A stretch of 64,000 nt of DNA from Halarcobacter sp. (GCA_963676565.1 OY781089.1:2528001-2592000); one strand, 5' to 3'; positions 8,522 to 47,173 are shown, numbered from the stretch's first letter. Notes: generated by a model from the letters alone, not told the origin. Numbers and translations: made by a program.

Positions 8522-10894
8522 ATGAGTAGCACATTTAATTATGAAAACCTTAAACTTTTTTATATAGGAAAAGAAAAAGTAGATGAAAGATTAATCCCAT
8601 TAGTTTATAAAAATAAACAACTCACAACACATGCAGCAATTATTGGTATGACAGGAAGTGGGAAAACAGGACTTGGTATTTCATTACTTGAAGAAGCTGC
8701 TATTGATAATATCCCTTCTATAATTATTGATCCAAAAGGCGATATGGGAAATTTATTATTAACATTTCCCCAATTAAGAGCAAAAGATTTTGAGCCCTGG
8801 ATTGAAGAGCAAGATGCTATTAATAGCTCTATGAGTGTTACTGAACTAGCACAAAAGACAGCTTCTTTATGGGAAAATGGTCTTCTCAATGATTTTCAAA
8901 ATAAAGATAGAATAGAGAAATTAAAAAATAGTGCAGATTTTACGATTTATACTCCAGGAAGTACCTCAGGAGTTCCTGTATCTGTTTTAGCATCTTTTAA
9001 AGCTCCATCAAAAGAAGTTTTAGATGACGCAGATATTTTAAATCAATTAGTTAACTCAACTGTTTCTTCATTACTTTCTTTAATTGAAATAAAAGAAAGT
9101 AACTCTTCAAAGGAGCATATTTTATTATCTTCAATTTTTATGGACTACTACTATCAAGGAAAAGATTTAAGCTTAGAAGAACTCATCTCAAATATTGTAA
9201 GTCCTCCTTTTAAAAAAGTAGGAATATTTGACTTAGACACTTTTTTTGCTTCTGAAGATAGATTAAAATTAGCATTAAAACTAAATTCAATTATTGCAAA
9301 CCCATCATTTAAAACATGGATTCAAGGTGAGCCTCTAGATATATCTAAAATGTTATATGACGAAAATGGAAAAGCAAAAGTATCAATTTTTTCTATTTCC
9401 CATTTAAATGATTCTCAGAGAATGTTCTTTGTATCTCTTTTATTAAATCAAATGGTAGCTTGGATGAGAAGACAAGAGGGAACAAGTTCATTAAAAGCCT
9501 TACTTTACATGGATGAGATTTTCGGATACTTTCCACCATCAAAAAACCCTCCCACAAAACAACCAATGTTAACACTTTTAAAACAAGCCAGATCTTTTGG
9601 TGTAGGAGTTATTTTATCAACACAAAATCCAGTTGATTTAGATTACAAAGGTTTATCAAATATTGGAACCTGGTTTATTGGTAGATTACAAACAAAACAA
9701 GATAAAGAAAAAGTTATTGATGGTTTAACAACAGGAGCCAATTCAAACCTAGATAAAAAAGAGCTTTTTGATTTATTATCTAAACTTGAAAAAAGAAACT
9801 TTATAATGAAAAATATTCATGAAGATACAGTAAAAGTTTTTAAAACAAGATGGGTTTTGTCATATTTAAAGGGTCCTATATCTAAAGAAGATATAAAAAA
9901 ATTGATGTCTGAAAAAATCAAAAAAGCATCAATAAAGAATAAAGAAGAAACTGATAATAAAAAATCTTTAAGAAGAAACCTTGATAATTCTACTAATAAC
10001 ATAAAACCCATAGTTCCAAATGAATTAGAAGAATTATACTTATATAAATCACAAAATGATTCATACCAAATGCAACCTTATCTTTTAGCCTCAAGTGAAA
10101 TAAATTTTTATAATGCAGCCAAAGATATTGATTTAAAAAAACAGATTATTCAAAAAATTTATTTAGATGAAACAAATTTAGAAGTAAACTGGGAGGACTA
10201 TGAATCGCTAAAAGAAAAAGTATTTACTAGAAATGAAAAGATAAACTCTTCTTATTATAACCTTCCAAATTTTATGTTAAACATAAGAGATTTAAAAGAA
10301 ATCCACAAAGATTTTACTAATAGAATCTATAAAAATAATGTTTTAATTCTTTATAAGAATAAACCATTAAAATTACTATCTAAACAAAATGAATCATTAG
10401 AAGATTTTAAAATTAGAATCCAAGATAGATTAAATGAAAATATTGATGAAGAAGTAGAAAAACTTCAAATAAAATTTCAAAGAGATGAAAAAAGATTAGA
10501 AAATAAATTAAATGATTTATATGTAAAACTTGAAAAAGAAAAAGACCAAGCAACAGCAAAAACAACTGATACCTTAATATCAATTGGTTCTTCTATTTTA
10601 GGTGCATTTTTTGGTAAATCTTCATCAAGTAGAACAAATATTGGAAGAGCAGCAAGTGGTATTAAAAATGCTTCAAAAGTATTAAAAGAAAGAAAAGATG
10701 TAAAATTTGTTGAATCAGAAATAGAAGAGGTTTCAAATGAAATCTCTTCTTTAAATCAAAAGCTTGAAATAGAAATTGAAAAAATAAAAGAAGAGTTTAA
10801 CTTCAATAACTATGAAATAGAAGAAGAAAAAGTAAAATTAAGAAGAAAAGATATTTATAATGTATCTATTTCACTTTTATGGGAAGAGGTTTAA
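8522..10894 (+). CDS. HerA/FtsK-superfamily ATPase (DUF87/DUF853-like) with a coiled-coil C-terminus
   Basis: Walker A GMTGSGKT, IIDPKGD, Walker B LYMDE, QARSFGVGVILSTQNP. Confidence 0.75.
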   Translation: MSSTFNYENLKLFYIGKEKVDERLIPLVYKNKQLTTHAAIIGMTGSGKTGLGISLLEEAAIDNIPSIIIDPKGDMGNLLLTFPQLRAKDFEPWIEEQDAINSSMSVTELAQKTASLWENGLLNDFQNKDRIEKLKNSADFTIYTPGSTSGVPVSVLASFKAPSKEVLDDADILNQLVNSTVSSLLSLIEIKESNSSKEHILLSSIFMDYYYQGKDLSLEELISNIVSPPFKKVGIFDLDTFFASEDRLKLALKLNSIIANPSFKTWIQGEPLDISKMLYDENGKAKVSIFSISHLNDSQRMFFVSLLLNQMVAWMRRQEGTSSLKALLYMDEIFGYFPPSKNPPTKQPMLTLLKQARSFGVGVILSTQNPVDLDYKGLSNIGTWFIGRLQTKQDKEKVIDGLTTGANSNLDKKELFDLLSKLEKRNFIMKNIHEDTVKVFKTRWVLSYLKGPISKEDIKKLMSEKIKKASIKNKEETDNKKSLRRNLDNSTNNIKPIVPNELEELYLYKSQNDSYQMQPYLLASSEINFYNAAKDIDLKKQIIQKIYLDETNLEVNWEDYESLKEKVFTRNEKINSSYYNLPNFMLNIRDLKEIHKDFTNRIYKNNVLILYKNKPLKLLSKQNESLEDFKIRIQDRLNENIDEEVEKLQIKFQRDEKRLENKLNDLYVKLEKEKDQATAKTTDTLISIGSSILGAFFGKSSSSRTNIGRAASGIKNASKVLKERKDVKFVESEIEEVSNEISSLNQKLEIEIEKIKEEFNFNNYEIEEEKVKLRRKDIYNVSISLLWEEV

Positions 10895-34479: not shown

Positions 34480-36453
34480 ATGACTAGATCTTATTATTCT
34501 AATAGCATTAAAATTTTTTTGAATGATGACATAGATAAAATATTAGGTCAACTCACAAGAAAACATAGTCACTCGTTAGATGATTTACAAAAAAATGCCT
34601 GGATAAAACAAATTGATATTTTGAAATCAACATTTAAAAATACCCATAGAGGTCATATTTTCTTTGAATTTGCCATTCCTAGAATGGGTAAAAGAGTTGA
34701 TAATATTGTTATTATTGATGATTCAATCTTTATAATAGAATTTAAAGTTGGAGCTAATAAATATGAAAACTATGCAATAGAACAAGTTTTAGATTATTCT
34801 AATGACTTAAAAAATTTTCACGAAGGGAGTCATCACAATAAGATATTTCCAATATTAGTATCTACAGAATCTGATTATATTAATAATAAGATTGAAACTC
34901 TTCAAGACTTATTATTTAAACCATTACTTGCAAATAAAGATAATATTACAGAATCTATAGAAAAATGCTTAGAATATAATCAAATGAAACCTATTGATCC
35001 TCTTCAATGGTCTAATTCAATTTATAAACCAACTCCTACAATTATTGAAGCTGCACAAGCACTATACAAAGGCCATGATGTAAAAGAAATATCACGTTCT
35101 GACTCTGGTGCAATAAATTTAACTAGAACAACAGAAAGTATAAATAGAATTATTGAAAATTCAAAAAATAATAATTTAAAATCTATATGTTTTATAACTG
35201 GTGTTCCTGGTGCAGGGAAAACACTTGCTGGACTCAATATTGCTAATGAAAGAATGAATATTGATAAAAATGAGCATGCTGTTTTCTTATCTGGAAATGG
35301 TCCCCTAGTAGATGTTCTAAGAGAAGCCCTTACTAGAGATGAAGTTAAAAATGCAAGTAATTCTGGAAAAAAATTAACAAAAAAAGAAGCTGCAATTAAA
35401 GCTAATTCATTTATTCAAAATATCCATCATTTTAGAGATGATGCACTTATGAATAATAAGGCGCCAATAGAAAAAGTTGTAGTATTTGATGAAGCACAAA
35501 GAGCTTGGAATGAAAAACAAACTAGTTCATTTATGAAAAGAAAAAAAGGTCACGATAATTTTAATTCATCAGAGCCTAACTTTTTAATAAATGTTATGAA
35601 TAGACATCAAAATTGGTGTACTATTATTTGTTTAATTGGAGGAGGACAAGAAATCAACACAGGTGAAGCTGGTCTTGAAGAATGGGTAAATTCACTAAAA
35701 CATAATTTCAAAGACTGGAATATTTTTTACTCAAATTTAATTGTTCAAGATGAAAACTATTTAAATAATTTAGAACTAAAGCAATGGTTAATAAATAATG
35801 CAAAAGTAGAGAAAGATCTCCATTTAGCTGTATCAGTTCGTTCTTTTAGGTCAGAAAGATTATCAGAATTTATACATTTATTATTAACTTTAGACTTAAA
35901 TAAATGTAGAGAAATTTATTCAAAGTATTTGAAAAAAGCTTATCCTATTAAAATCACAAGAAACTTTGAAAATGCTAAACAATGGTTAAAACAACATGCT
36001 ATTGGAAGTGAAAGAAATGGAATATTAGCTTCTTCTGGAGCATATAGGTTAAGACCACATGGTATTAATGTAAAGAATCAAATAGACGCTCCCATTTGGT
36101 TTTTAAACGATAAGTACGATATTAGGTCATCTTATTTTAATGAAGAAGTTGCAACAGAATTTGATGTTCAAGGATTAGAATTAGATTGGATATGTGTTTG
36201 TTGGGATGGGGACTTCTATCTAAAAAACAATAAATGGGTATATAGAAAATTCAAAGGTACCAAATGGCAAAATGTTAATCAAGATATAATTAAGAATTAT
36301 TTATTAAATGCTTATAGAGTTTTACTTACTAGAGCTAGACAAGGTATGATCATTTTTATCCCTTATGGAACAAATGATGATTCGACAAGATTAAATGAGT
36401 TTTATGATGAAACCTTTGAATATTTAACACAAATTGGAATAGAAGAAATTTAA
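34480..36453 (+). CDS. DUF2075 (Schlafen group-3-type) helicase with an N-terminal PD-(D/E)XK/NERD-like nuclease domain
   Basis: RVD-x9-IIEFK; Walker A GVPGAGKT; FDEAQR; QGLELD; YRVLLTRAR. Confidence 0.8.
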   Translation: MTRSYYSNSIKIFLNDDIDKILGQLTRKHSHSLDDLQKNAWIKQIDILKSTFKNTHRGHIFFEFAIPRMGKRVDNIVIIDDSIFIIEFKVGANKYENYAIEQVLDYSNDLKNFHEGSHHNKIFPILVSTESDYINNKIETLQDLLFKPLLANKDNITESIEKCLEYNQMKPIDPLQWSNSIYKPTPTIIEAAQALYKGHDVKEISRSDSGAINLTRTTESINRIIENSKNNNLKSICFITGVPGAGKTLAGLNIANERMNIDKNEHAVFLSGNGPLVDVLREALTRDEVKNASNSGKKLTKKEAAIKANSFIQNIHHFRDDALMNNKAPIEKVVVFDEAQRAWNEKQTSSFMKRKKGHDNFNSSEPNFLINVMNRHQNWCTIICLIGGGQEINTGEAGLEEWVNSLKHNFKDWNIFYSNLIVQDENYLNNLELKQWLINNAKVEKDLHLAVSVRSFRSERLSEFIHLLLTLDLNKCREIYSKYLKKAYPIKITRNFENAKQWLKQHAIGSERNGILASSGAYRLRPHGINVKNQIDAPIWFLNDKYDIRSSYFNEEVATEFDVQGLELDWICVCWDGDFYLKNNKWVYRKFKGTKWQNVNQDIIKNYLLNAYRVLLTRARQGMIIFIPYGTNDDSTRLNEFYDETFEYLTQIGIEEI

Positions 36454-37362: not shown

Positions 37363-37926
37363 TTAAACTGCACCCATAAGTTGTTTTGAGCTTTCCCCTA
37401 CAAAAGTCAACATTTCTTCATATGATGCACTTGCCTCATCTACATCAGTATCAATCAACTCATCATATACTGCTTCAATTTTTTCTTCTTGTTTTTTTAA
37501 TCTCTTCATATCAGATTTCTCTAAATCTGCTAGTTCTAAAAGTTCATTCCAAACAGAGCTTTCATCTAAAGGAAATGCAGTAAATTTGATACCTTCATAC
37601 TCAAAAGTACCAGCTTTTTCTAAATCTGTTACATATAATAGATATAAACCACCAGATACTAAAAAATCTTTATATTTTTCTACTAATGGTGCTAAGTCAT
37701 GAAAACTTTCTAATTCACAAGCAAAAAATTTCATTGTTCCATCAAGAATAGTAATTACTTGTTTTGCCTGAATCTTTGGAGGAAGTTTTCTATCAGGAGA
37801 GATTTGTTTTCCAGGTTCGACTATTAAAGCTCCCCTATATCCATATGTTCCATCACTTAATTCACCTTGAAATGATGGTTGCCATGCTAATTCATTTTCC
37901 TTTAAAAACTCTACGAAATTTGCCAT
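37363..37926 (-). CDS. Acidic hypothetical protein, putatively nif-associated
   Basis: 187-aa ORF with AAGGA SD, preceded by a sigma54-type motif; functional label is inference. Confidence 0.7.
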   Translation of the reverse strand: MANFVEFLKENELAWQPSFQGELSDGTYGYRGALIVEPGKQISPDRKLPPKIQAKQVITILDGTMKFFACELESFHDLAPLVEKYKDFLVSGGLYLLYVTDLEKAGTFEYEGIKFTAFPLDESSVWNELLELADLEKSDMKRLKKQEEKIEAVYDELIDTDVDEASASYEEMLTFVGESSKQLMGAV

Positions 37927-37958: not shown

Positions 37959-37975
37959 ATGCAAGAAATATTCCC
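37959..37975 (-). promoter_or_regulatory. Sigma54 (-24/-12) promoter
   Basis: Minus strand gGG-AATATTTCTT-GCAT, with GC 35 nt before the ATG. Confidence 0.7.
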
Positions 37976-37990
37976 TAAGCTTTTTTTACT

Positions 37991-39547
37991 CTACATAAAC
38001 CTTTCAAAGCTTTGAGGATATGGAGTATTTAATAAATCACCCTTTTGCATAGGTGGAAACAATTCATCATATCTTTTATAGCTAGTTTGGTCTAACCTTC
38101 TAAAAATATGTGTTCTATTTAGCTTGTGTGGATTATCAAGTCCTGCTGATGCAATTATCTCAATAAAACTTTCTAAAGTTACTTCATGAAAATTTGCAAC
38201 TCTTTGTTTTTTGTCTTCGACTACAAGTCCTTTTGCTAATCTTGGATTTTGAGTAGCAACACCCGTTGGGCAAGTATTTTTATGACATTGTAAAGCCTGA
38301 ATACATCCAAGACTTAACATCATTCCTCTAGCACTTGCTACTAAATCAGCCCCAAGAGAGAAGGCTTTAGCTATATCCATTCCATTTAAAATTTTTCCAG
38401 AAGCAACAACTTTAATCTCATCTTTTAAATTAAATCCATTTAAACAATCAACTACAAAAACCAAGGCCTCTCTAAGTGGCATACCAACAGAATTTGTATA
38501 TTCTAAAGGAGCAGCACCAGTTCCACCTTCACCACCATCAACAGTTATAAAATCTGGTCTAATGTTATGTTCAACCATTGCTTTACAAATATCAATAAAT
38601 TCCTCTTTTCTTCCAACACAAAGTTTAAATCCAACGGGCTTTCCTTCAGTTAAATCCCTTAATCTTTTAATAAATTTTAAAAGTCCTAAACTTGAATTAA
38701 AAGCACTGTGTGTTGGTGGAGAATCAACTCTTGTATGTGGTTTAACATCTCTATCCTCAGCTATTTCAAGGGTATTTTTATTTGCTGGTAAAATACCGCC
38801 ATGTCCAGGTTTTGCCCCTTGAGAAAGTTTAATCTCAATCATTTTTACATTTTCATTTAATGCTTTTTTAGTAAATTTTTCTTCATGAAAATTTCCATCT
38901 TCATCTCTACAACCAAAATATCCAGTTCCAATTTGCCATATCAAATCACAATTAGATGCTAAATGATATCTACTTAATCCACCTTCCCCTGTGTTTAAAG
39001 CAAAATTTCCAATTTTAGCGCCATGTCCTAAAGCCATAATAGCATTTGAACTTAAGGCTCCAAAACTCATGGCAGAAATATTTAAAATAGATGAATCATA
39101 TGGGACTTTACAATCACTACCACCTATTAATACTCTTGGACTTAAGTCTAAATCATGGGCTTTTAAAGCATGTAAAGAGTGTCCTATCCACTCATAACCT
39201 TCTTGATAAACATCCATCTTAGTTCCAAAAGGAATTGTACTTTGTTGTTTTTTTGAACGTCTATAAACTACACTTCTTGCTTGTCTATTAATTGGAACCC
39301 CATCCATATCAGATTCAATAAAATATTGTCTAATAGGAGGTCTAAGCTCTTCTAAAACCCATCTCATACGTGCAACTACAGGGAAGTTTCTCCATAAGGC
39401 ATGTTTAGTTTGTTTTGTATCATAAATACCAACTGCAATTAAAACTGCAAATATCAAAGCAAGCCATAAAAATGATAAATCGATAATAGAAAGGATAATT
39501 ATAAAAATAGATCCAAAGATGATAATTTTTTGAAATAGTTTAGGCAT
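37991..39547 (-). CDS. FMN-binding glutamate synthase family protein (stand-alone FMN domain, N-terminal TM)
   Basis: SAMSFGALS, NTGEGG, EIKLSQGAKPG and GCIQALQCHKNTCPTG (3Fe-4S) motifs; likely ATG 39547. Confidence 0.88.
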   Translation of the reverse strand: MPKLFQKIIIFGSIFIIILSIIDLSFLWLALIFAVLIAVGIYDTKQTKHALWRNFPVVARMRWVLEELRPPIRQYFIESDMDGVPINRQARSVVYRRSKKQQSTIPFGTKMDVYQEGYEWIGHSLHALKAHDLDLSPRVLIGGSDCKVPYDSSILNISAMSFGALSSNAIMALGHGAKIGNFALNTGEGGLSRYHLASNCDLIWQIGTGYFGCRDEDGNFHEEKFTKKALNENVKMIEIKLSQGAKPGHGGILPANKNTLEIAEDRDVKPHTRVDSPPTHSAFNSSLGLLKFIKRLRDLTEGKPVGFKLCVGRKEEFIDICKAMVEHNIRPDFITVDGGEGGTGAAPLEYTNSVGMPLREALVFVVDCLNGFNLKDEIKVVASGKILNGMDIAKAFSLGADLVASARGMMLSLGCIQALQCHKNTCPTGVATQNPRLAKGLVVEDKKQRVANFHEVTLESFIEIIASAGLDNPHKLNRTHIFRRLDQTSYKRYDELFPPMQKGDLLNTPYPQSFERFM

Positions 39548-39588
39548 AAGGAAGTCTCTTTTTTTATTTTTATTATACAAAAAAGAGA

Positions 39589-39891
39589 TTAATTAGAAGG
39601 TTTATATTTTTTAGTTATCCTTGCAAAATCATAAAAATCACTTAACATTAAATAGCGAATTTGAATATCTTCAAATTTCTTATGAACTATTTCTAAACCT
39701 TCATTATATAATCTTACATCTTCAATAAATTCATTTGGATAATCAAGCTTTTCCTCTTTTATTTGAGGGAAACATTCCATAAATTGAAAAAAAAGTTTAT
39801 TTACAAGTTCTTTTTTTTCATTGCTTGGTTCTTTTAAAAAACCTTTTAGAGTTTCAAACTCTTTACAAATTTCTACTAAACACTTGTACAT
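39589..39891 (-). CDS. Hypothetical protein, coupled to the ArsC-family gene
   Basis: 100-aa ORF overlapping the upstream stop; RYLMLSDFYDF motif. Confidence 0.65.
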   Translation of the reverse strand: MYKCLVEICKEFETLKGFLKEPSNEKKELVNKLFFQFMECFPQIKEEKLDYPNEFIEDVRLYNEGLEIVHKKFEDIQIRYLMLSDFYDFARITKKYKPSN

Positions 39892-40301
39892 GAATCACTA
39901 CTACTTTGACAAGTACCAATTTGTTTTTTTGTATCAAGTTCTAAATCTAAGACATCATTTAATTTTGCCATATCAAATCCACAAATTTTACTATCATCTA
40001 CAATTATCAAAGGTCTTTTTATTAAAATTGGATCATTAATCATTTTATATATCAATTGTTCTTTGGTGACTGAATTTAAGTCAATTTCACCGTTTTTTAT
40101 CTTTGGAGCAGTTTCATTTACAATTTCATTTTTTTCTAGTCCTACAAAAAATGACTCTAAGGTTTTTTTGTCCCATTTTGTATCAAGTATAGATTTAACT
40201 TCAAACTCAAGACCGTTGGCTTTTAAAAGCTCTTTTTGTTTTTTATTTCCTAAACAACCAGGCTTCTCATAAAAAACAATCTTTTTTTTAACATAAAACA
40301 T
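39876..40301 (-). CDS. ArsC/Spx-family protein of the nitrogenase-associated (NifO-like) type
   Basis: IVFYEKPGCLGNKKQK start; PILIKRPL and GFD motifs; C-terminal Cys pair. Confidence 0.75.
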   Translation of the reverse strand: MFYVKKKIVFYEKPGCLGNKKQKELLKANGLEFEVKSILDTKWDKKTLESFFVGLEKNEIVNETAPKIKNGEIDLNSVTKEQLIYKMINDPILIKRPLIIVDDSKICGFDMAKLNDVLDLELDTKKQIGTCQSSSDSCTSV

Positions 40302-40328
40302 TTTGTCTCCTTCATCCTAATAATCTAT

Positions 40329-40345
40329 ATGCAAATATCATGCCT
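40329..40345 (-). promoter_or_regulatory. Sigma54 (-24/-12) promoter
   Basis: Minus strand aGG-CATGATATTT-GCAT, close to the TGGCAC-N5-TTGC consensus, with GC 30 nt before the ATG. Confidence 0.75.
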
Positions 40346-40356
40346 TTTATTGTTTA

Positions 40357-40373
40357 CGGTATTATTTTTGCAT
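40357..40373 (+). promoter_or_regulatory. Sigma54 (-24/-12) promoter, divergent
   Basis: cGG-TATTATTTTT-GCAT, with GC 35 nt before ATG 40406; a TATAAT overlaps at 40373-40378. Confidence 0.55.
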
Positions 40374-40405
40374 ATAATACTTTTTTTCAATTACAAAGGT
40401 ATTAC

Positions 40406-41578
40406 ATGCTTTCAAAATATTCATTCGGAACTTATAGAACAACTTATCAAAATCCAATTCATAAAGAAGCTTTAAATTTTGCATTAGATAATGGGATTAC
40501 TCATATTGATACTTCATCAAACTATATGCATGGTGAAGCAGAAATTATGATAGGTCAAATAATAGAAAATAGAAATAGAGAAGATTTCACTATTGTTTCA
40601 AAGGGTGGTTATATCCAAGGTGAAAACCTAAAAAGAGTTATGGAAGGCTTTAAAGTTGAAGATTTAGTAAGATATGATGAAAACTGTTTTCACAGTATCC
40701 ATGAAGAGTTTTTAGAAGATCAAATCAATAGAAGTTTAGAAAGATTAAAAACAAACTACATCGATGTCTATCTACTTCATAATCCCGAATACTACTTATT
40801 AAAAGAGATAAAAGTTGGTATGACAGAACAAGCCATCTTAAAACACCACGAGATTATGCAACAAAGAATAAAAAGAGCCTTTGCCTTTTTAGAAGCAAAG
40901 GTTAAAGAAGGAAAAATAAAAGCCTATGGTATTAGCTCAAACTCCTTTGCAAAAAAAAGAATAAATTACCACTTTTTAGAGTATAAACACTTAATAAACT
41001 ATGCAAAAGAGATTGCAGGAGATAATCACAATTTTAAAGTAATACAATTGCCTATGAATATGTTTGAAAATGATGGTGAAGAGTGTGCAAAATGGGCCCA
41101 TGAAAATGGTTTAGAAGTTCATATTAATAGACCATTAAATGCGATGAAAGAGGATAGAATGATTAGGCTTGCTTCATATGAAGAGTGTATAAATTATGAT
41201 TCCCTTTTAGCTCAAATTAGAGAAATAAATAATGATGCCTTTCAAGAGGTTATTGACCAGATTTTAAAAATAGAAAATGATTACAGATGGGCTGGCGATG
41301 TTGATGATATATTAGAGTATCAAGTAATCCCTTATATTGTTCAAAATATCAATCTTGACCCAGTTTATTTTCAATTAGTTGATAACTTTTTAAACTGTTA
41401 TAAAAGTAATATAAAAAGTAGAATTTCAAAAGAAGTAGCAAAGGAAATAAATATAAATGGTCCAATAGATGGTGTTGCTTTAAAATATTTGGAACAAAAA
41501 GAGTATGTTACAAGAATACTTGTGGGGATGAGAGATAAAAGATATGTAAAAAAGATTTTAGATTACTCTAAAATCTAA
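40406..41578 (+). CDS. Aldo/keto reductase family protein
   Basis: FGTY, IDTSSNY, SLERLKTNYIDVYLLHNP, YGISSN and ILVGMR motifs; likely ATG 40406 after AAGG. Confidence 0.85.
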   Translation: MLSKYSFGTYRTTYQNPIHKEALNFALDNGITHIDTSSNYMHGEAEIMIGQIIENRNREDFTIVSKGGYIQGENLKRVMEGFKVEDLVRYDENCFHSIHEEFLEDQINRSLERLKTNYIDVYLLHNPEYYLLKEIKVGMTEQAILKHHEIMQQRIKRAFAFLEAKVKEGKIKAYGISSNSFAKKRINYHFLEYKHLINYAKEIAGDNHNFKVIQLPMNMFENDGEECAKWAHENGLEVHINRPLNAMKEDRMIRLASYEECINYDSLLAQIREINNDAFQEVIDQILKIENDYRWAGDVDDILEYQVIPYIVQNINLDPVYFQLVDNFLNCYKSNIKSRISKEVAKEININGPIDGVALKYLEQKEYVTRILVGMRDKRYVKKILDYSKI

Positions 41579-43487: not shown

Positions 43488-44192
43488 TTACTCAATTATT
43501 CTTTTAGCTAGTTTTTCTATAACTTTCTTTTTTAGGATATGAATATCACTTTGCTTTACCCATAACAAGGCTTCTTTTTTATAATATTCTAAAATAAGAG
43601 GGTCAATAGATTCTTTTTTTTCATCCATTTTTTGTAAAAAATCTTTTAATTCTCCTTCATCAAAATCTTCAAATTTTTCTAACTTAAAATATAAAGCTTC
43701 TAAGAAATCATTATCGATAAAATCTTTACTTCTTTTTAAAAACTTTGTAGCTTCTGTTTCTAAAGCTTTTATATCATTCCATTTTCTTCCAGTTTTAAGC
43801 TGGTCAATTGCTACAGGTAAAAACACAGGAACTAGATCTAAAACTTGATTTAACTCACTAAAATCATTATCAACCATAGATCTAAAAAGCATTCTAGTTC
43901 TGTTTCTAATTTTTACTCTTAGATTATCATCTTTTATTACATCTTTATGAATTAACTGAAATCTTCTAAGAGCAGGTAATTTTGAGTGATTAAAAGCCAT
44001 AATAGAAACAAGTGGGGCACTATCAGCTATTTGCTCCTCCCTTGAGCCATTTGGTCTACAAAATGCCCAATAAAGCCTAGCTTCCATATCTTCATGATTT
44101 AGATATTTTTCATCCCCTAAGCTTTCAAAATCATCCTCATCTTTTAGTAGTTCTACTTCATCTTTATATGTTAAATTGAATAACTCTTCCAA
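43488..44192 (-). CDS. Hypothetical protein, putatively nif-associated
   Basis: Likely TTG start 44192 after AAGG, overlapping the VWA gene stop; ARLYWAFCRP and IMAFNHS motifs. Confidence 0.7.
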   Translation of the reverse strand: MEELFNLTYKDEVELLKDEDDFESLGDEKYLNHEDMEARLYWAFCRPNGSREEQIADSAPLVSIMAFNHSKLPALRRFQLIHKDVIKDDNLRVKIRNRTRMLFRSMVDNDFSELNQVLDLVPVFLPVAIDQLKTGRKWNDIKALETEATKFLKRSKDFIDNDFLEALYFKLEKFEDFDEGELKDFLQKMDEKKESIDPLILEYYKKEALLWVKQSDIHILKKKVIEKLAKRIIE

Positions 44193-45384
44193 AACGTTCA
44201 AACCTTTTAATATTTTTTTTCTCACTTATTATAAATAGTGTCTTACAAACTAAACTTTCATACATCTCAAATTCACCATCAGTTAAAACCATAAGTAAGT
44301 TATCACTTCTGATATCACTTGATTTTTTTAAATATCTTAAAACTTCATCAAAATTTGTTCCACCATCACTTTTAGGGATAAAAAGTTCTTTTTCTATCAA
44401 GGGATTAAAGGAATCAAACTCGATTATATGCTCCTCTTTAACTTTTAAATCAAAAGGAAGAACCTTTACTTTATATTCATAGAAACCTTCACAAACATCT
44501 TTTACTACCCCTAGAAATTTTTTATATTCATCAAGGGTAACACTTGAACTACTATCAAGTGCTATAAAAACCTCAATCATCTCGTCACTTTTTTTATTCC
44601 CAGGTAAATACAATCCACTATGAACAAATTTTCTATTTGGCCTTGAGTAAGTTGATGTTTTTTCAAACAGTGATGAGATTAAATACTCTTTTAAAGTATC
44701 TTGTAGTGAAATTTCAGGTTTTATTAAAGTATCTATTTCAATTTGCATTCCCTGATACTCTTTTGAACTTTTTTTAGCTATTGAAAGTGCTTGTATTATG
44801 ATTCCATCTAATTTTTCTCTATCACCACTACTTGTATTTTCATCATTTACCTCTTCTATATCCATCTTTGATTCATCATAGATATAAGCTTTTAATTTAC
44901 CATCTTCTTTTGGTTTAGTTTTTATCTCATCATCTTTTTTTTCTTCTGAAGAGCTTTCATTTTTTTCTTCTTCTTTTCTAAGGATTTCATAGACCTCTTC
45001 AACACATTTATTTTCTAAGTCTAAATCTAATATCTCATCAGTTGGCATTTTCCCTATATTTGAGAAACTATATAAAACCAAATTTGTAACTAAATCACAA
45101 GCTTGATTCCAAAGTTTTTTCTCTCTTGTTCTTTGTCTAAAGGGGTGTTTTAAAACTATGTGTAAAAGTGTGTGGGCATAAAGATAAGTTATCTCATCAC
45201 TAGAATAACTTTGTAGTTTTTTTAAATCAATAAATATCTCTTTACCATTAGTTTGAAATGCACTATTACTATTATCTTTAAAACTAGTTGGAATTGATAA
45301 TGCTAATACAGAAAGAAAGGGATGGTTAAATAAAAAGTTAATCCTTATTTTCTGAAAAACTTCATCATATGATATACTCACCAT
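44164..45384 (-). CDS. DUF2201-type protein: degenerate metallopeptidase-like N-domain plus VWA domain
   Basis: HTLLH at the HExxH position, WNQACD, MIDAS LDSSSS, GGTNF, LTDG. Confidence 0.82.
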   Translation of the reverse strand: MVSISYDEVFQKIRINFLFNHPFLSVLALSIPTSFKDNSNSAFQTNGKEIFIDLKKLQSYSSDEITYLYAHTLLHIVLKHPFRQRTREKKLWNQACDLVTNLVLYSFSNIGKMPTDEILDLDLENKCVEEVYEILRKEEEKNESSSEEKKDDEIKTKPKEDGKLKAYIYDESKMDIEEVNDENTSSGDREKLDGIIIQALSIAKKSSKEYQGMQIEIDTLIKPEISLQDTLKEYLISSLFEKTSTYSRPNRKFVHSGLYLPGNKKSDEMIEVFIALDSSSSVTLDEYKKFLGVVKDVCEGFYEYKVKVLPFDLKVKEEHIIEFDSFNPLIEKELFIPKSDGGTNFDEVLRYLKKSSDIRSDNLLMVLTDGEFEMYESLVCKTLFIISEKKNIKRFERFGRVIQFNI

Positions 45385-46372
45385 ACTGCTCCATCCAAGT
45401 ATCAAACTCTTCAAGTTCTGCTATATCTTCATCTTTGACTATTAAATCTTTAATAAGCATCACATTAAACTCAACTGGAAGATGATTTGCATATTTAAAT
45501 AAATTCTTTCCTTGAGAATTCCCTTTATATTTTTCAATTATTGCTGCACATAAAGCATATAAAGCACTAGGTTCGTCTGGAACAACATCACTTTCTCCTT
45601 CCAAGATAGCATCAATATCAGGTAACGTTTTATAAACTTTTACAAAAGAGATAAACTCAATGCCTGCACCATATCCAACAGTTCCGTAAACAACTGGATG
45701 AATACAATTTAGATCTTCATTCTTTTTTAAAATATTGGATAACATATTCCATGCTCTTGGTGTACAAAAAGCTGGATTTGTTTCAGTTGAACTTGGTACC
45801 TCATTACTTAATAAATCTGGACGAAAGCCTAAAAAACCTATAACAAAAGGATGTATCTCATTTTTGATTGCCCAAATTTTAAAATCATCATATTTAGCTT
45901 CCAAAACAATATGTACCATCCTATTAATAAGTGGACTTGGAAGTTTAAAAACAATACCTTTATCATCTATTTTATTTCCAGCACAAATGATTCTCCAACC
46001 CCTAGGCAGTGTGTACTCACCAATTTTCCTATCTAAAACCAACTGATAAATTGCAGCTTGAACTGAAAGTGGAGCTGAGTTTAACTCATCTAAAAAAAGT
46101 ATTCCTTCAGAATCTTCATTGGAGGGTAAAAAAATTGGTGGCATCCATTTTGTTTGATTATTAGATATTGTAGGAATTCCCCTTAAATCAACTGCATCAA
46201 GTTGAGAAAGTCTTACATCTATAAGCTTTAAATCATTTTGTTTTGCAATATCATTTACAATATATGATTTTCCAATTCCTGGACTACCATGGATAAATAA
46301 AGGTATATCTACATCTATTAAAACTTGGATTTGTTTATATAATTCAGTTGTTCCTATAGAAGGTGTAATCAT
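45365..46372 (-). CDS. MoxR-like AAA+ ATPase
   Basis: GSPGIGKS, DLRGIP, LFLDELN, CAGN, LINRM and TPRAW motifs. Confidence 0.88.
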   Translation of the reverse strand: MITPSIGTTELYKQIQVLIDVDIPLFIHGSPGIGKSYIVNDIAKQNDLKLIDVRLSQLDAVDLRGIPTISNNQTKWMPPIFLPSNEDSEGILFLDELNSAPLSVQAAIYQLVLDRKIGEYTLPRGWRIICAGNKIDDKGIVFKLPSPLINRMVHIVLEAKYDDFKIWAIKNEIHPFVIGFLGFRPDLLSNEVPSSTETNPAFCTPRAWNMLSNILKKNEDLNCIHPVVYGTVGYGAGIEFISFVKVYKTLPDIDAILEGESDVVPDEPSALYALCAAIIEKYKGNSQGKNLFKYANHLPVEFNVMLIKDLIVKDEDIAELEEFDTWMEQYGEYII

Positions 46373-46380
46373 TATTTATC

Positions 46381-46569
46381 CTATGAAAGTTTTAGCTCTT
46401 TTAGTATCTCTTGTAAATCTTTATTTAAATCGGTGATTTTTTCTAGAACTTTATCTTTTTGCTCATTTGACATTGAAAATTTGCTATCAATATTTTCATA
46501 AATTTTTAAAGAGTCAGTAAAAATCTTTTGCATCAAATCTTGTTTTATTTTTTCTTCTAAAATACCCAT
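46381..46569 (-). CDS. Small helical hypothetical protein
   Basis: 62 aa, AAGGAG SD, within the operon. Confidence 0.7.
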   Translation of the reverse strand: MGILEEKIKQDLMQKIFTDSLKIYENIDSKFSMSNEQKDKVLEKITDLNKDLQEILKELKLS

Positions 46570-46582
46570 AATATCTCCTTGA

Positions 46583-46965
46583 TTAAACTTTTTTTAGAAA
46601 GCTAGCTAAATCACTATCCATACTTATTAGATGTAAATCAAACCAATCTGGAAGCTTTTGTATATAGTAAGCTTTTAATAGTTGCTTACCAATAGAAGTG
46701 TTACTTTTTTCTAAAAAAAACTGCATCTCATGTAGTACTTTTTGATGTTCCTCTTTATGCTCTCTTGAAGTTGGATAATTAAATTGATCCATTTGTAATT
46801 CTTCATAAAAAAATGTCTTTTTGTATGTTCTATTAACTCTTTTGTTTTATTTATTATACTGCCAATTGAATTGCTGTCTGCACCATTATAAATCTGAACA
46901 AACTCTTTATGAATCTCATCCATTTCATTGTGTTTTAGAAGATGCTTATTATCTTTAAATTCCAT
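46583..46965 (-). pseudogene. Single-domain bacteriohemerythrin split by a frameshift in a T7 tract
   Basis: MDEIH, HF-x2-EE, HKEEH and H-x4-D ligands lie in two frames; one extra T at 46807-46813 gives an intact 127-aa ORF. Confidence 0.8.
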
Positions 46966-46994
46966 ATTTTTCTTACCATATTTTTAAAGCTTAT

Positions 46995-47011
46995 ATGCAA
47001 TAACTATACCC
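46995..47011 (-). promoter_or_regulatory. Sigma54 (-24/-12) promoter
   Basis: Minus strand gGG-TATAGTTATT-GCAT, with GC 32 nt before the hemerythrin ATG. Confidence 0.7.
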
Positions 47012-47062
47012 CATTGAAAAAACTCTTTTAAACAATGTTTTGTATAATGTATTTTTTAATAA

Positions 47063-47173
47063 GAGCAACTCGTTGCTCACTTTAGAATTTGCTTCTTTAA
47101 AAAGAGTTTATCTCTTTTGCTAAAAGAAGTGTAATATTTAGGTCCCTTTAAAAATAGGGATTATTTTTAAAGG
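47063..47173 (+). promoter_or_regulatory. Structured leader or repeat element upstream of sfsA (three hairpins)
   Basis: Inverted repeats at 47063-47078, 47092-47129 and 47145-47173; the last covers the SD. Confidence 0.55.

Follow-up and report, generated by a model that had tools for sequence, protein, structure and literature searches.

A candidate nif-regulon MoxR–VWA chaperone module in Halarcobacter and related Campylobacterota

The 64,000-nt stretch of Halarcobacter sp. DNA analysed here (OY781089.1:2528001-2592000 of assembly GCA_963676565.1; hereafter the window, with positions counted from its first base) carries on its minus strand a row of genes, three of which encode an AAA+ ATPase, a DUF2201 protein with a von Willebrand factor A-like (VWA) domain and a 245-aa helical protein. 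We propose that these three form a MoxR–VWA chaperone module of the nif regulon which acts on a Nif protein, either in maturation, at the level of molybdenum (Mo) or of nitrogenase's iron-molybdenum cofactor (FeMo-co), or in protection; we give this reading a probability of about 0.6. A functional tie between the module and nitrogen fixation, whatever the client, is highly probable. The assignment as a MoxR–VWA chaperone follows from the parts of the module, and a client in the nitrogenase pathway is suggested by its regulation, distribution and neighbours.

MoxR–VWA pairs are described, in the accessible parts of four reports, as metal-insertion or remodelling chaperones, with roles at the FeB centre for NorQ/NorD, the Mo-Cu centre for CoxD/CoxE, Rubisco for CbbQ/CbbO and respiratory complexes for RavA/ViaA (PMC9976466, PMC4660213, PMC3893208, PMC4240915). 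Such pairs are known for few metalloenzymes (NO reductase, CO dehydrogenase, Rubisco and respiratory complexes among them) and none assigned to nitrogenase was found in the literature searched. Nor did this literature, which left out subscription journals and supplementary files, hold a description of a nif-linked MoxR–VWA module, a MoxR–VWA component found with nifQ, or anything relevant on DUF2201. This is in line with a preliminary description of the same DNA, which knew of no described system with such a composition. It had listed five same-strand genes separated by gaps of 13 and 8 nt or overlapping, behind one sigma-54-type motif. All five frames were recovered on the minus strand, head to tail, with these two gaps followed by two overlaps, and the promoter motif is present as well. 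The features are as follows (genes as open reading frame (ORF) calls):

47011..46995, minus strand: sigma-54-type promoter motif GGGTATAGTTATTGCAT, 46 nt before the hemerythrin ATG, with GG at 47010-47009 and GC at 46998-46997
46965..46583, minus strand: hemerythrin gene, frameshifted
46569..46381, minus strand: 62-aa gene
46372..45365, minus strand: AAA+ ATPase gene, 335 aa
45414..44164, minus strand: DUF2201 (VWA) protein gene, 416 aa
44225..43488, minus strand: 245-aa gene

The module occurs in genomes that carry nifH

Among 60 relatives, in which nifH was called above the TIGR01287 cut-off, the module (scored by its VWA ortholog at E ≤ 2e-89) was found in 14 genomes, all 14 of which carry nifH. 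The latter was present in 21 of the 60 overall, seven of them without the module, and 39 genomes had neither. A sample of 400 genomes of the order gave full-length orthologs of the 245-aa protein in 33, each with nifH (33/33 at E ≤ 1e-80; 32 of them above the cut-off, while genome G151 has a truncated nifH match), compared to 87/400 overall. Expressed as a split, nifH was found in 33/33 genomes with the module versus 54/367 without it. The preliminary description had called for a survey of diazotrophs against non-diazotrophs, and an operon common among the latter would have counted against it. This outcome was not seen: the order sample contains 313 genomes negative for nifH, and a full-length copy of the 245-aa gene was found in none of them.

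The two samples overlap by 6 genomes, leaving 41 distinct module genomes, of which 41 are nifH-positive. The pattern recurs in nine families of GTDB, and in one of these (f19) the 3 of 32 genomes with nifH are exactly the 3 that have the module. Three weak matches were set apart: a fragment at a contig end of an 83% complete genome (G037), a stop-containing pseudogene (G142), and, in an 82% complete genome where nifQ is present (G248), nothing but a paralog.

A nif-type sigma-54 promoter

The pattern GG-N8-TTGCA is found upstream of the hemerythrin gene in 9/9 same-genus loci, mostly as TGGAATAAAAATTGCAT. A loose version of the promoter pattern gave 1064 matches on both strands of the genome, and a tighter one 21 matches in the 3.34-Mb genome. 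Nine of these 21 are located at 695-750 kb, in the nif region, where they precede NifV, a 61-aa gene, NifE, NifN, NifX, a ferredoxin and others; two more are at NifS/NifU-like genes. Another two fall in the window, one being the hemerythrin promoter and the other belonging to an orphan 187-aa gene (37363..37926). The 17-mer before the ferredoxin gene of the nif region is identical to the hemerythrin-promoter 17-mer of several relatives. The nif region also contains rpoN and a NifA-like gene (518 bits, for a cut-off of 529). The motif noted in the preliminary description is therefore real and of nif type.

The promoter was also examined at related loci. Of the 57 evaluable loci, 22 have a motif upstream of their first gene at a distance of 600 nt or less, for an expectation of 0.063 per locus. 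All 22 belong to the 27 evaluable loci of one part of our set (L049–L084, mostly labelled Arcobacteraceae, Arcobacter or Aliarcobacter), where most motifs precede the ATPase start by 43-57 nt or are found upstream of hemerythrin. In the other part (L086–L128), 30 loci were evaluable and none has a motif within 600 nt, and in 29 of these 30 nifQ stands directly ahead of the ATPase gene; absence of a nearby motif is expected there if reading starts further upstream. In the window itself, no terminator-like sites were seen inside the gene row on the minus strand, and sigma-70-like hexamers are about as frequent as in shuffled sequence (32 found, 29.7 expected).

Conserved unit and genomic context

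Judged by gene order in relatives, the conserved unit is a three-gene module (ATPase, DUF2201 protein and 245-aa protein) and not the row of five, hemerythrin and the 62-aa gene appearing as additions specific to certain lineages. The trio was found together in relatives' loci, at 70-89% identity (tblastn) in the same genus and at 37-77% in families elsewhere in the order; compared with same-genus species, identity of the core proteins is 72-89%. With a profile made from the 245-aa protein, 80 related loci were retrieved, nearly all Campylobacterota-labelled, apart from three metagenome-assembled genomes (MAGs) with vaguer labels; likewise, the 126 genome relatives of the 245-aa gene are all Campylobacterota-labelled except three such MAGs. 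In a strain of Arcobacter nitrofigilis, its ortholog is Arnit_0270. The DUF2201 gene precedes the 245-aa gene in 78 of the 80 loci and the ATPase gene is present in 68; in one genome (G018) ATPase and DUF2201 genes lie in a single 738-aa frame. Hemerythrin, by comparison, accompanies the module in 9/9 same-genus loci, 0/5 more distant relatives and 12/80 related loci, and the 62-aa gene is missing from 3/9 same-genus loci, that of the closest relative (G014) included. The five-gene composition, put forward in the preliminary description as a system, is thus specific to the genus.

The genes flanking the trio are related to nitrogen fixation in many loci. In 29 of the 56 loci evaluable for it, nifQ stands immediately upstream of the ATPase gene, often overlapping it, and this adjacency belongs to L086–L128 (29/30 evaluable loci, mostly with Sulfurimonadaceae, Sulfuricurvum, Sulfurovum and Sulfurospirillum labels). 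NifQ is described in the accessible text of PMC11605450 as an Fe-S molybdoprotein which donates Mo for FeMo-co. On the other side, a homolog of the window's NifO/DraB-like 'nitrogenase-associated protein' is found downstream of the 245-aa gene in 49/80 loci; this family, TIGR01616, is tied to nif in the part of PMC5249018 available. At least one canonical nif gene is located within 10 kb in 40/80 loci (NifQ in 33, NifA in 13, NifX in 9, NifB in 5, NifV in 5 and NifDK in 1). The distance from the module to nifH is 30-57 kb in 6 species representatives. Neither a canonical nif gene nor a NifO-like homolog was seen in 25/80 loci, among them five window-like loci labelled Halarcobacter or Arcobacter and several short contigs.

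No nif structural gene was found in the window, and no nif gene besides the NifO-like one:

39876..40301, minus strand: NifO/DraB-like 'nitrogenase-associated protein' gene, ArsC family, 141 aa (NCBIfam TIGR01616, 116.9 bits, cut-off 109)

About 3.2 kb of inserted genes, encoding a 2-hydroxyacid dehydrogenase, a Gate-domain membrane protein and an aldo-keto reductase, part it from the 245-aa gene. Comparison with the other loci indicates that the NifO-like gene is an ancestral downstream neighbour of the 245-aa gene, displaced in the window. In support of the idea of a dedicated MoxR–VWA machine tied to nitrogenase, as advanced in the preliminary description, the module thus combines nifH in 14/14 and 33/33 genomes, nifQ and NifO-like flanks and a nif-type sigma-54 promoter.

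A further small gene lies between the 245-aa and NifO-like genes in two fully annotated loci, with 80 aa in L116 (10740-10982) and 112 aa in L088 (10621-10959). Its homologs occur in about 42/80 loci, a count that is not de-duplicated, and none was found in the Halarcobacter genome itself. A 100-aa gene of the window was considered as its counterpart and rejected, the two being unrelated.

The three core proteins

The ATPase matches Pfam AAA_5 at 29.1 bits (cut-off 22) and AAA_3, the model for MoxR proper, at 26.5 bits, just under the cut-off of 27. Walker A (GSPGIGKS), Walker B (ILFLDE), sensor-1 N133, R151 and R206 are invariant in 14 aligned sequences. Searched against the PDB, the ATPase profile reached midasin at 1.2e-20, NorQ at 3.7e-5, MoxR (2r44) at 9.7e-4 and CbbQ at 1.2e-3. 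On this alignment the protein is an ATPase of the MoxR/midasin/dynein-related (AAA_5) kind with all catalytic motifs intact, presumably working as a hexameric motor.

The DUF2201 protein, which probably starts at ~45384 in database entries (405-406 aa), is composed of two domains. Its C-terminal part is a VWA-like domain (Pfam DUF2201, PF09967; 4e-8), in which the metal ion-dependent adhesion site (MIDAS) residues D287, S289, S291, T353 and D379 do not vary among 19 sequences, some of them from paralogs. The AlphaFold2 model of the protein has a predicted local distance difference test (pLDDT) score of 75. Foldseek with the model of the C-terminal domain gave 64 PDB matches at E ≤ 1e-3, and 50/50 among the matches listed are VWA or I-domains, with the VWA domain of NorD from NorQD complexes and the MIDAS of Rea1/Mdn1 among them. 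The preliminary description was therefore right to call this a VWA gene, the MIDAS being intact, and missed an additional N-terminal zincin-like domain (DUF2201_N, PF13203, 'putative metallopeptidase'; 6.8e-24, 85.4 bits, cut-off 23.2).

This second domain departs from an active peptidase. The motif reads H[TAVSI]LLH in 10/10 orthologs, so that the HExxH of a DUF2201_N metallopeptidase is absent, while two phage homologs have HExxH at the same columns. Both histidines of the motif and a third one five residues on are kept, and the catalytic Glu is lost. With this Glu gone and the metal ligands retained, no proteolysis is expected; we infer that the domain is non-proteolytic and it may still bind a metal.

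The 245-aa protein (234 aa in database entries, starting at ~44192) has no Pfam, PADLOC or PHROG family, and its NCBIfam match is sub-threshold (19.5 bits, cut-off 40). Its family comprises only 34 representative clusters among 1.84 billion proteins, with 23 invariant residues, among which Arg, Asp and His are frequent. AlphaFold2 predicts an all-alpha protein of 16 helices (pLDDT 91.6). No PDB match was obtained for this model by Foldseek at E ≤ 1e-3, a VIA-wide structure search gave a best Z of 7.6 over the final 63 residues (the C-terminal three helices) only, and a protein-atlas look-up hinted at LRV/HEAT repeats with a best score, 0.83, that was below the useful range. The fold searches with this predicted structure amount neither to a fold assignment nor to proof of a new fold. 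PDB sequence searches with the 245-aa and VWA proteins returned chance-level matches only. Complex prediction for the VWA protein with its own NifQ and with the 245-aa protein gave a score of 0.00 without controls, which is evidence neither way.

A homolog of the 245-aa protein's residues 105-245, ~187 aa in length, is often encoded near the module (L032, L034-L036, L038 and 27/80 loci of L049-L128). Such a paralog of the C-terminal part was searched for in the Halarcobacter genome and none was found; the 187-aa gene of the window (37363-37926), tried as a candidate, was rejected as not being this paralog. In one species representative (G237), the 245-aa gene is present twice at full length, on different contigs. 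A second AAA-DUF2201 pair is present in the Halarcobacter genome itself (G000:C1:491500-493650, locus L040), with 42% and 23% identity, without a 245-aa partner and beside transporter genes.

Relation to phage proteins

The ATPase and the DUF2201 protein both have strong matches in phage families (PHROG 1297 at 1e-100 and PHROG 1314 at 5e-66, respectively), and homologs of the VWA protein are encoded in 136 phage records. A pair made of a MoxR ATPase and a metallopeptidase–vWA protein was reported for group 2.2 jumbo phages and proposed, in the accessible text, to be a chaperone for virion-protein processing or assembly (Iyer et al. 2021, PMC7824862). One may therefore ask whether the Halarcobacter pair is of phage origin, serving virion assembly, conflict or defence and standing in diazotrophs by chance, the more so as some distant loci have defence-type or mobile neighbours (restriction-modification, AAA_15/DUF3226, a phage replication gene). 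We regard this as very improbable. No phage structural genes were found among the genes of the window, and in a PADLOC search with four proteins of the row the ATPase gave weak P-loop-level matches only (E ≥ 1e-4) and the other three none. The chromosomal context is stable within the genus. The peptidase motif of the phage homologs is lost in 10/10 orthologs, and the module is confined to nifH-positive genomes and bears a nif-type promoter.

Compared to the pair of jumbo (group 2.2) and N4-like phages, the module has the same two-gene architecture and the same families (PHROG 1297 and 1314). It differs in that the two phage proteins examined keep HExxH whereas the nif-linked orthologs are without the Glu, and in that its 245-aa gene matches no PHROG family. 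The architecture of a MoxR ATPase with a peptidase-VWA protein is thus already known from jumbo phages; what appears to be new, from the comparisons made here, is a diazotroph-confined subfamily with loss of the catalytic Glu, a private third subunit and a nifQ/nifO context.

Comparison with known ATPase–VWA systems

A first parallel may be drawn with NorQ/NorD. Both have adjacent AAA+ and VWA genes, an intact MIDAS and a genetic tie to one metalloenzyme pathway; in addition, the fold matches of the VWA model include NorD's VWA domain from NorQD complexes, and NorQ is reached by the ATPase profile at 3.7e-5. Unlike NorQ/NorD, which inserts the non-heme FeB into nitric oxide reductase (cNOR), the module shows weak sequence similarity, its ATPase being nearer to midasin AAA domains (1e-20), it has an extra N-terminal zincin-like domain and a dedicated 245-aa protein, and the pathway is that of nitrogenase and not of cNOR.

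CoxD/CoxE and CbbQ/CbbO likewise combine an ATPase with a VWA adaptor beside the genes of the client and, according to the available parts of two reports, act post-translationally on a metal centre or an inhibited enzyme (PMC4240915, PMC4660213). They belong to different subfamilies (CbbQ was reached at 1.2e-3 only) and are without a zincin-like domain and without a 245-aa partner. NifQ and NifO, which handle Mo for FeMo-co in Azotobacter, are neighbours or partners of the module genes and not homologs.

A second comparison concerns the number of components. In class I chelatases (BchI/BchD/BchH, CobS/CobT/CobN), metal is inserted by a third subunit, which binds the substrate and is driven by an AAA+ motor together with a VWA/MIDAS subunit. 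The module has three components as well, and its ATPase has a weak match to PHROG 249 ('porphyrin biosynthesis'). In contrast to the chelatases, its third protein is of 245 aa with no CobN/BchH family in Pfam, and an Fe-S-Mo cluster or a protein would take the place of the tetrapyrrole as substrate. No large subunit of CobN/BchH type was seen to be conserved in the related loci.

Proposed function of the module

Sigma-54, probably together with the NifA-like activator of the nif region, would turn the module on alongside the nitrogenase genes. The AAA+ ATPase would act as the hexameric motor and the DUF2201 protein as its cofactor, the VWA/MIDAS domain gripping an acidic residue of the client. 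The zincin-like domain would cut no protein and may hold a metal, and the helical 245-aa protein would be a system-specific third subunit or adaptor. In this way the module would spend ATP to remodel a protein of the nitrogenase pathway. The likeliest step would be the hand-over of Mo or of a cluster in FeMo-co assembly, by loading or unloading NifQ or by acting on NifEN/NifH, since in about half of the related loci the trio lies between nifQ, the gene of the Mo donor, and the NifO-like gene. The second likeliest step, repair of nitrogenase or its protection against O2, is kept in play by O2-defence genes upstream of some modules and by the hemerythrin of the genus.

The specific Mo/NifQ step can be put forward only tentatively. 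A more speculative version, which we hold to be doubtful, is that the three proteins constitute an ATP-driven 'molybdenum insertase' for nitrogenase of chelatase-like build, placing Mo onto the NifQ Fe-S cluster or exchanging Fe for Mo on a NifEN-bound precursor. There, the de-activated zincin site (three His, no Glu) would be re-used for the hand-over of metal or cluster, and the Arg-rich 245-aa protein would be an oxyanion- or client-binding subunit.

Several observations weigh against a nif-regulon chaperone acting on a Nif protein. Concerning location, nifH is 1.85 Mb from the module in the 3.34-Mb Halarcobacter genome and the module is far from the nif cluster across the genus. Concerning regulation, co-transcription and nitrogen regulation of the row are predictions, none of the sequencing runs listed as containing the stretch being of RNA, and no NifA site (TGT-N10-ACA) was found within 220 nt upstream of the module; this absence is uninformative, as the site is also missing at 20 of the 21 tight promoter matches genome-wide and found at 1. 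Concerning distribution, the sampled genomes are related and not independent, so the counts overstate the statistics. Also, 54 of the 87 nifH-positive genomes of the order sample are without the module, and it is therefore not required for nitrogen fixation; on present comparisons it is an accessory found only where nitrogenase is. All 33 module genomes have nifQ, as do most other sampled diazotrophs, and with nifQ near-universal among these the phyletic pattern cannot tell a NifQ client from another Nif client. Paralogous AAA-DUF2201 pairs occur in nifH-negative genomes too (G026, G041, G050, G054), and close sequence relatives of the AAA and VWA proteins are common in phages. Finally, O2-defence genes (peroxiredoxin, flavodiiron protein) are located further upstream of nifQ-preceded modules in two fully annotated loci. 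Upstream of nifQ-AAA, both loci (L116, with a Pseudomonadota label and a Sulfuricurvum-type layout, and L088, Sulfurovum) encode peroxiredoxin, nitroreductase-like and flavodiiron proteins, to which L116 alone adds an ankyrin protein.

This last arrangement would suit a machine for protection or repair, which would reactivate or shield O2-damaged nitrogenase or mature an O2-scavenging partner such as a flavodiiron protein, with hemerythrin as O2 sensor or buffer. Similar matches are present in the Halarcobacter nif region, hemerythrin heads the operon in 9/9 same-genus loci (12/80 overall), and co-occurrence with nifH suits this explanation equally well. Its probability nevertheless appears rather low: hemerythrin is missing from most loci and broken in this strain, whose other four genes are intact; across families, it is nifQ and the NifO-like gene, rather than O2-handling genes, that are immediately adjacent and translationally coupled; and none of the known conformational-protection proteins was identified beside the module.

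The main nif region of Halarcobacter (G000:C1:693000-750000, loci L045-L047) contains, among the nif genes, rpoN and genes for a ClpX paralog, an ankyrin-repeat protein, a SagB-family dehydrogenase and a flavorubredoxin-like (flavodiiron-type) protein. Also found there are a weak peroxiredoxin match, an aldo-keto reductase-like protein and a flavoprotein of the SdhA/FrdA family (succinate dehydrogenase or fumarate reductase).

Alternatively, the module could be a chaperone co-regulated with nif and have its client outside nitrogenase biogenesis, for instance in electron supply, ammonium assimilation or redox balance. Co-occurrence says that the module needs nif and not which protein it serves; moreover, the window has an island with a glutamate-synthase-domain protein, aldo-keto reductases and orphans, one of them with a nif-type sigma-54 motif, and the main nif region encodes the aldo-keto reductase-like and SdhA/FrdA-family proteins just mentioned. 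Such a client seems improbable to us, because nifQ and the NifO-like gene are conserved beside the module across families and none of these candidates is.

To our knowledge, the route of Mo to NifQ and onward from NifQ is still unsettled, and a candidate ATP-dependent factor at the nifQ–nifO position makes this question of Mo handling testable. Were the insertase version true, it would add an energy-dependent step to the FeMo-co pathway, outside the Azotobacter/Klebsiella scheme. The module could also matter for nitrogenase transfer to other hosts, where cofactor maturation limits. The bacteria concerned carry out nitrogen fixation in sulfidic, micro-oxic sediments and salt marshes, settings in which O2 exposure and Mo availability each pose a problem.

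The hemerythrin gene and its frameshift

The first gene of the row is, as the preliminary description had it, a hemerythrin gene in its identity and place; it is not intact, being split into an N-terminal frame of 84 aa (46965..46711) and a C-terminal frame of 69 aa (46792..46583). The two halves match complementary parts of NCBIfam hemerythrin models, each below the cut-off. The break is located at a run of 7 T (46813..46807), within the HxxxE iron-ligand motif, and the single open frame with H, HxxxE, HxxxH and HxxxxD ligands typical of a bacteriohemerythrin is thus absent in this strain. The gene is one open frame of ~130 aa in 9/9 same-genus relatives. The label 'O2-linked' given to the row in the preliminary description therefore rests on neighbours only, the hemerythrin of the strain itself being broken.

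Contigs of four public runs (X1, X2, X4, X5) were compared with the window over 46300-47100. In X1, whose DNA is near-identical and from which this assembly may have been made, the 7-base run is as in the window. A metagenome contig of X4 has a run one base longer and is otherwise identical across 801 bases; one contig of X2 also has one extra base in the run, and X5 has an additional G inserted beside it. As near-identical DNA elsewhere has an open frame, the break is a recent single homopolymer change limited to this strain. The 7-T run forms a perfect U_UUU_UUU slippery heptamer in the zero frame, with the downstream part in the -1 frame, and some full-length hemerythrin could be made by slippage.

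A frameshift in the first gene might indicate that the whole row is decaying or non-functional in this strain. This can hardly be the case: the other four frames are open, the core proteins keep 72-89% identity to their same-genus counterparts and have invariant catalytic motifs, and the frameshift is a single recent change in a homopolymer that near-identical DNA does not share.

The 62-aa protein

The 62-aa protein has no family at curated level in Pfam, NCBIfam or PADLOC. Its best non-self match in the Halarcobacter genome is a 61-aa ORF (C1:697783), next to nifB and behind a sigma-54 motif. The reciprocal search with the 61-aa ORF recovered the 62-aa gene together with its orthologs in two relatives (G036 and G058). 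Matches to the 61-aa ORF were found in 18 of the 60 relatives besides the Halarcobacter genome, all 18 being nifH-positive. These similarities place the 62-aa protein in a small, nif-associated family, and its absence from some same-genus loci indicates that it is dispensable for the module.

Other genes of the window

Beside the NifO-like gene, the stretch 37991-41578 contains a 100-aa orphan gene, a gene for a 529-aa glutamate-synthase-domain protein and an aldo-keto reductase gene, and looks like a small secondary nif island. The main nif region also has a similar aldo-keto reductase, with its own sigma-54 motif.

The orphan 187-aa gene (37363-37926, minus strand) has no family match and is preceded by a nif-type sigma-54 motif, GGGAATATTTCTTGCAT, at 37959-37975. 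In Sulfuricurvum- and Sulfurimonadaceae-labelled loci, its homolog stands divergent to a second AAA-DUF2201 pair.

Elsewhere in the window, a Schlafen-group-3-type helicase gene and a HerA-like ATPase gene (34480-36453 and 8522-10894) may be defence-related; they are unconnected to the module. The window is G+C-poor (25-33%), and the database relatives of its proteins bear Halarcobacter and Arcobacter names.

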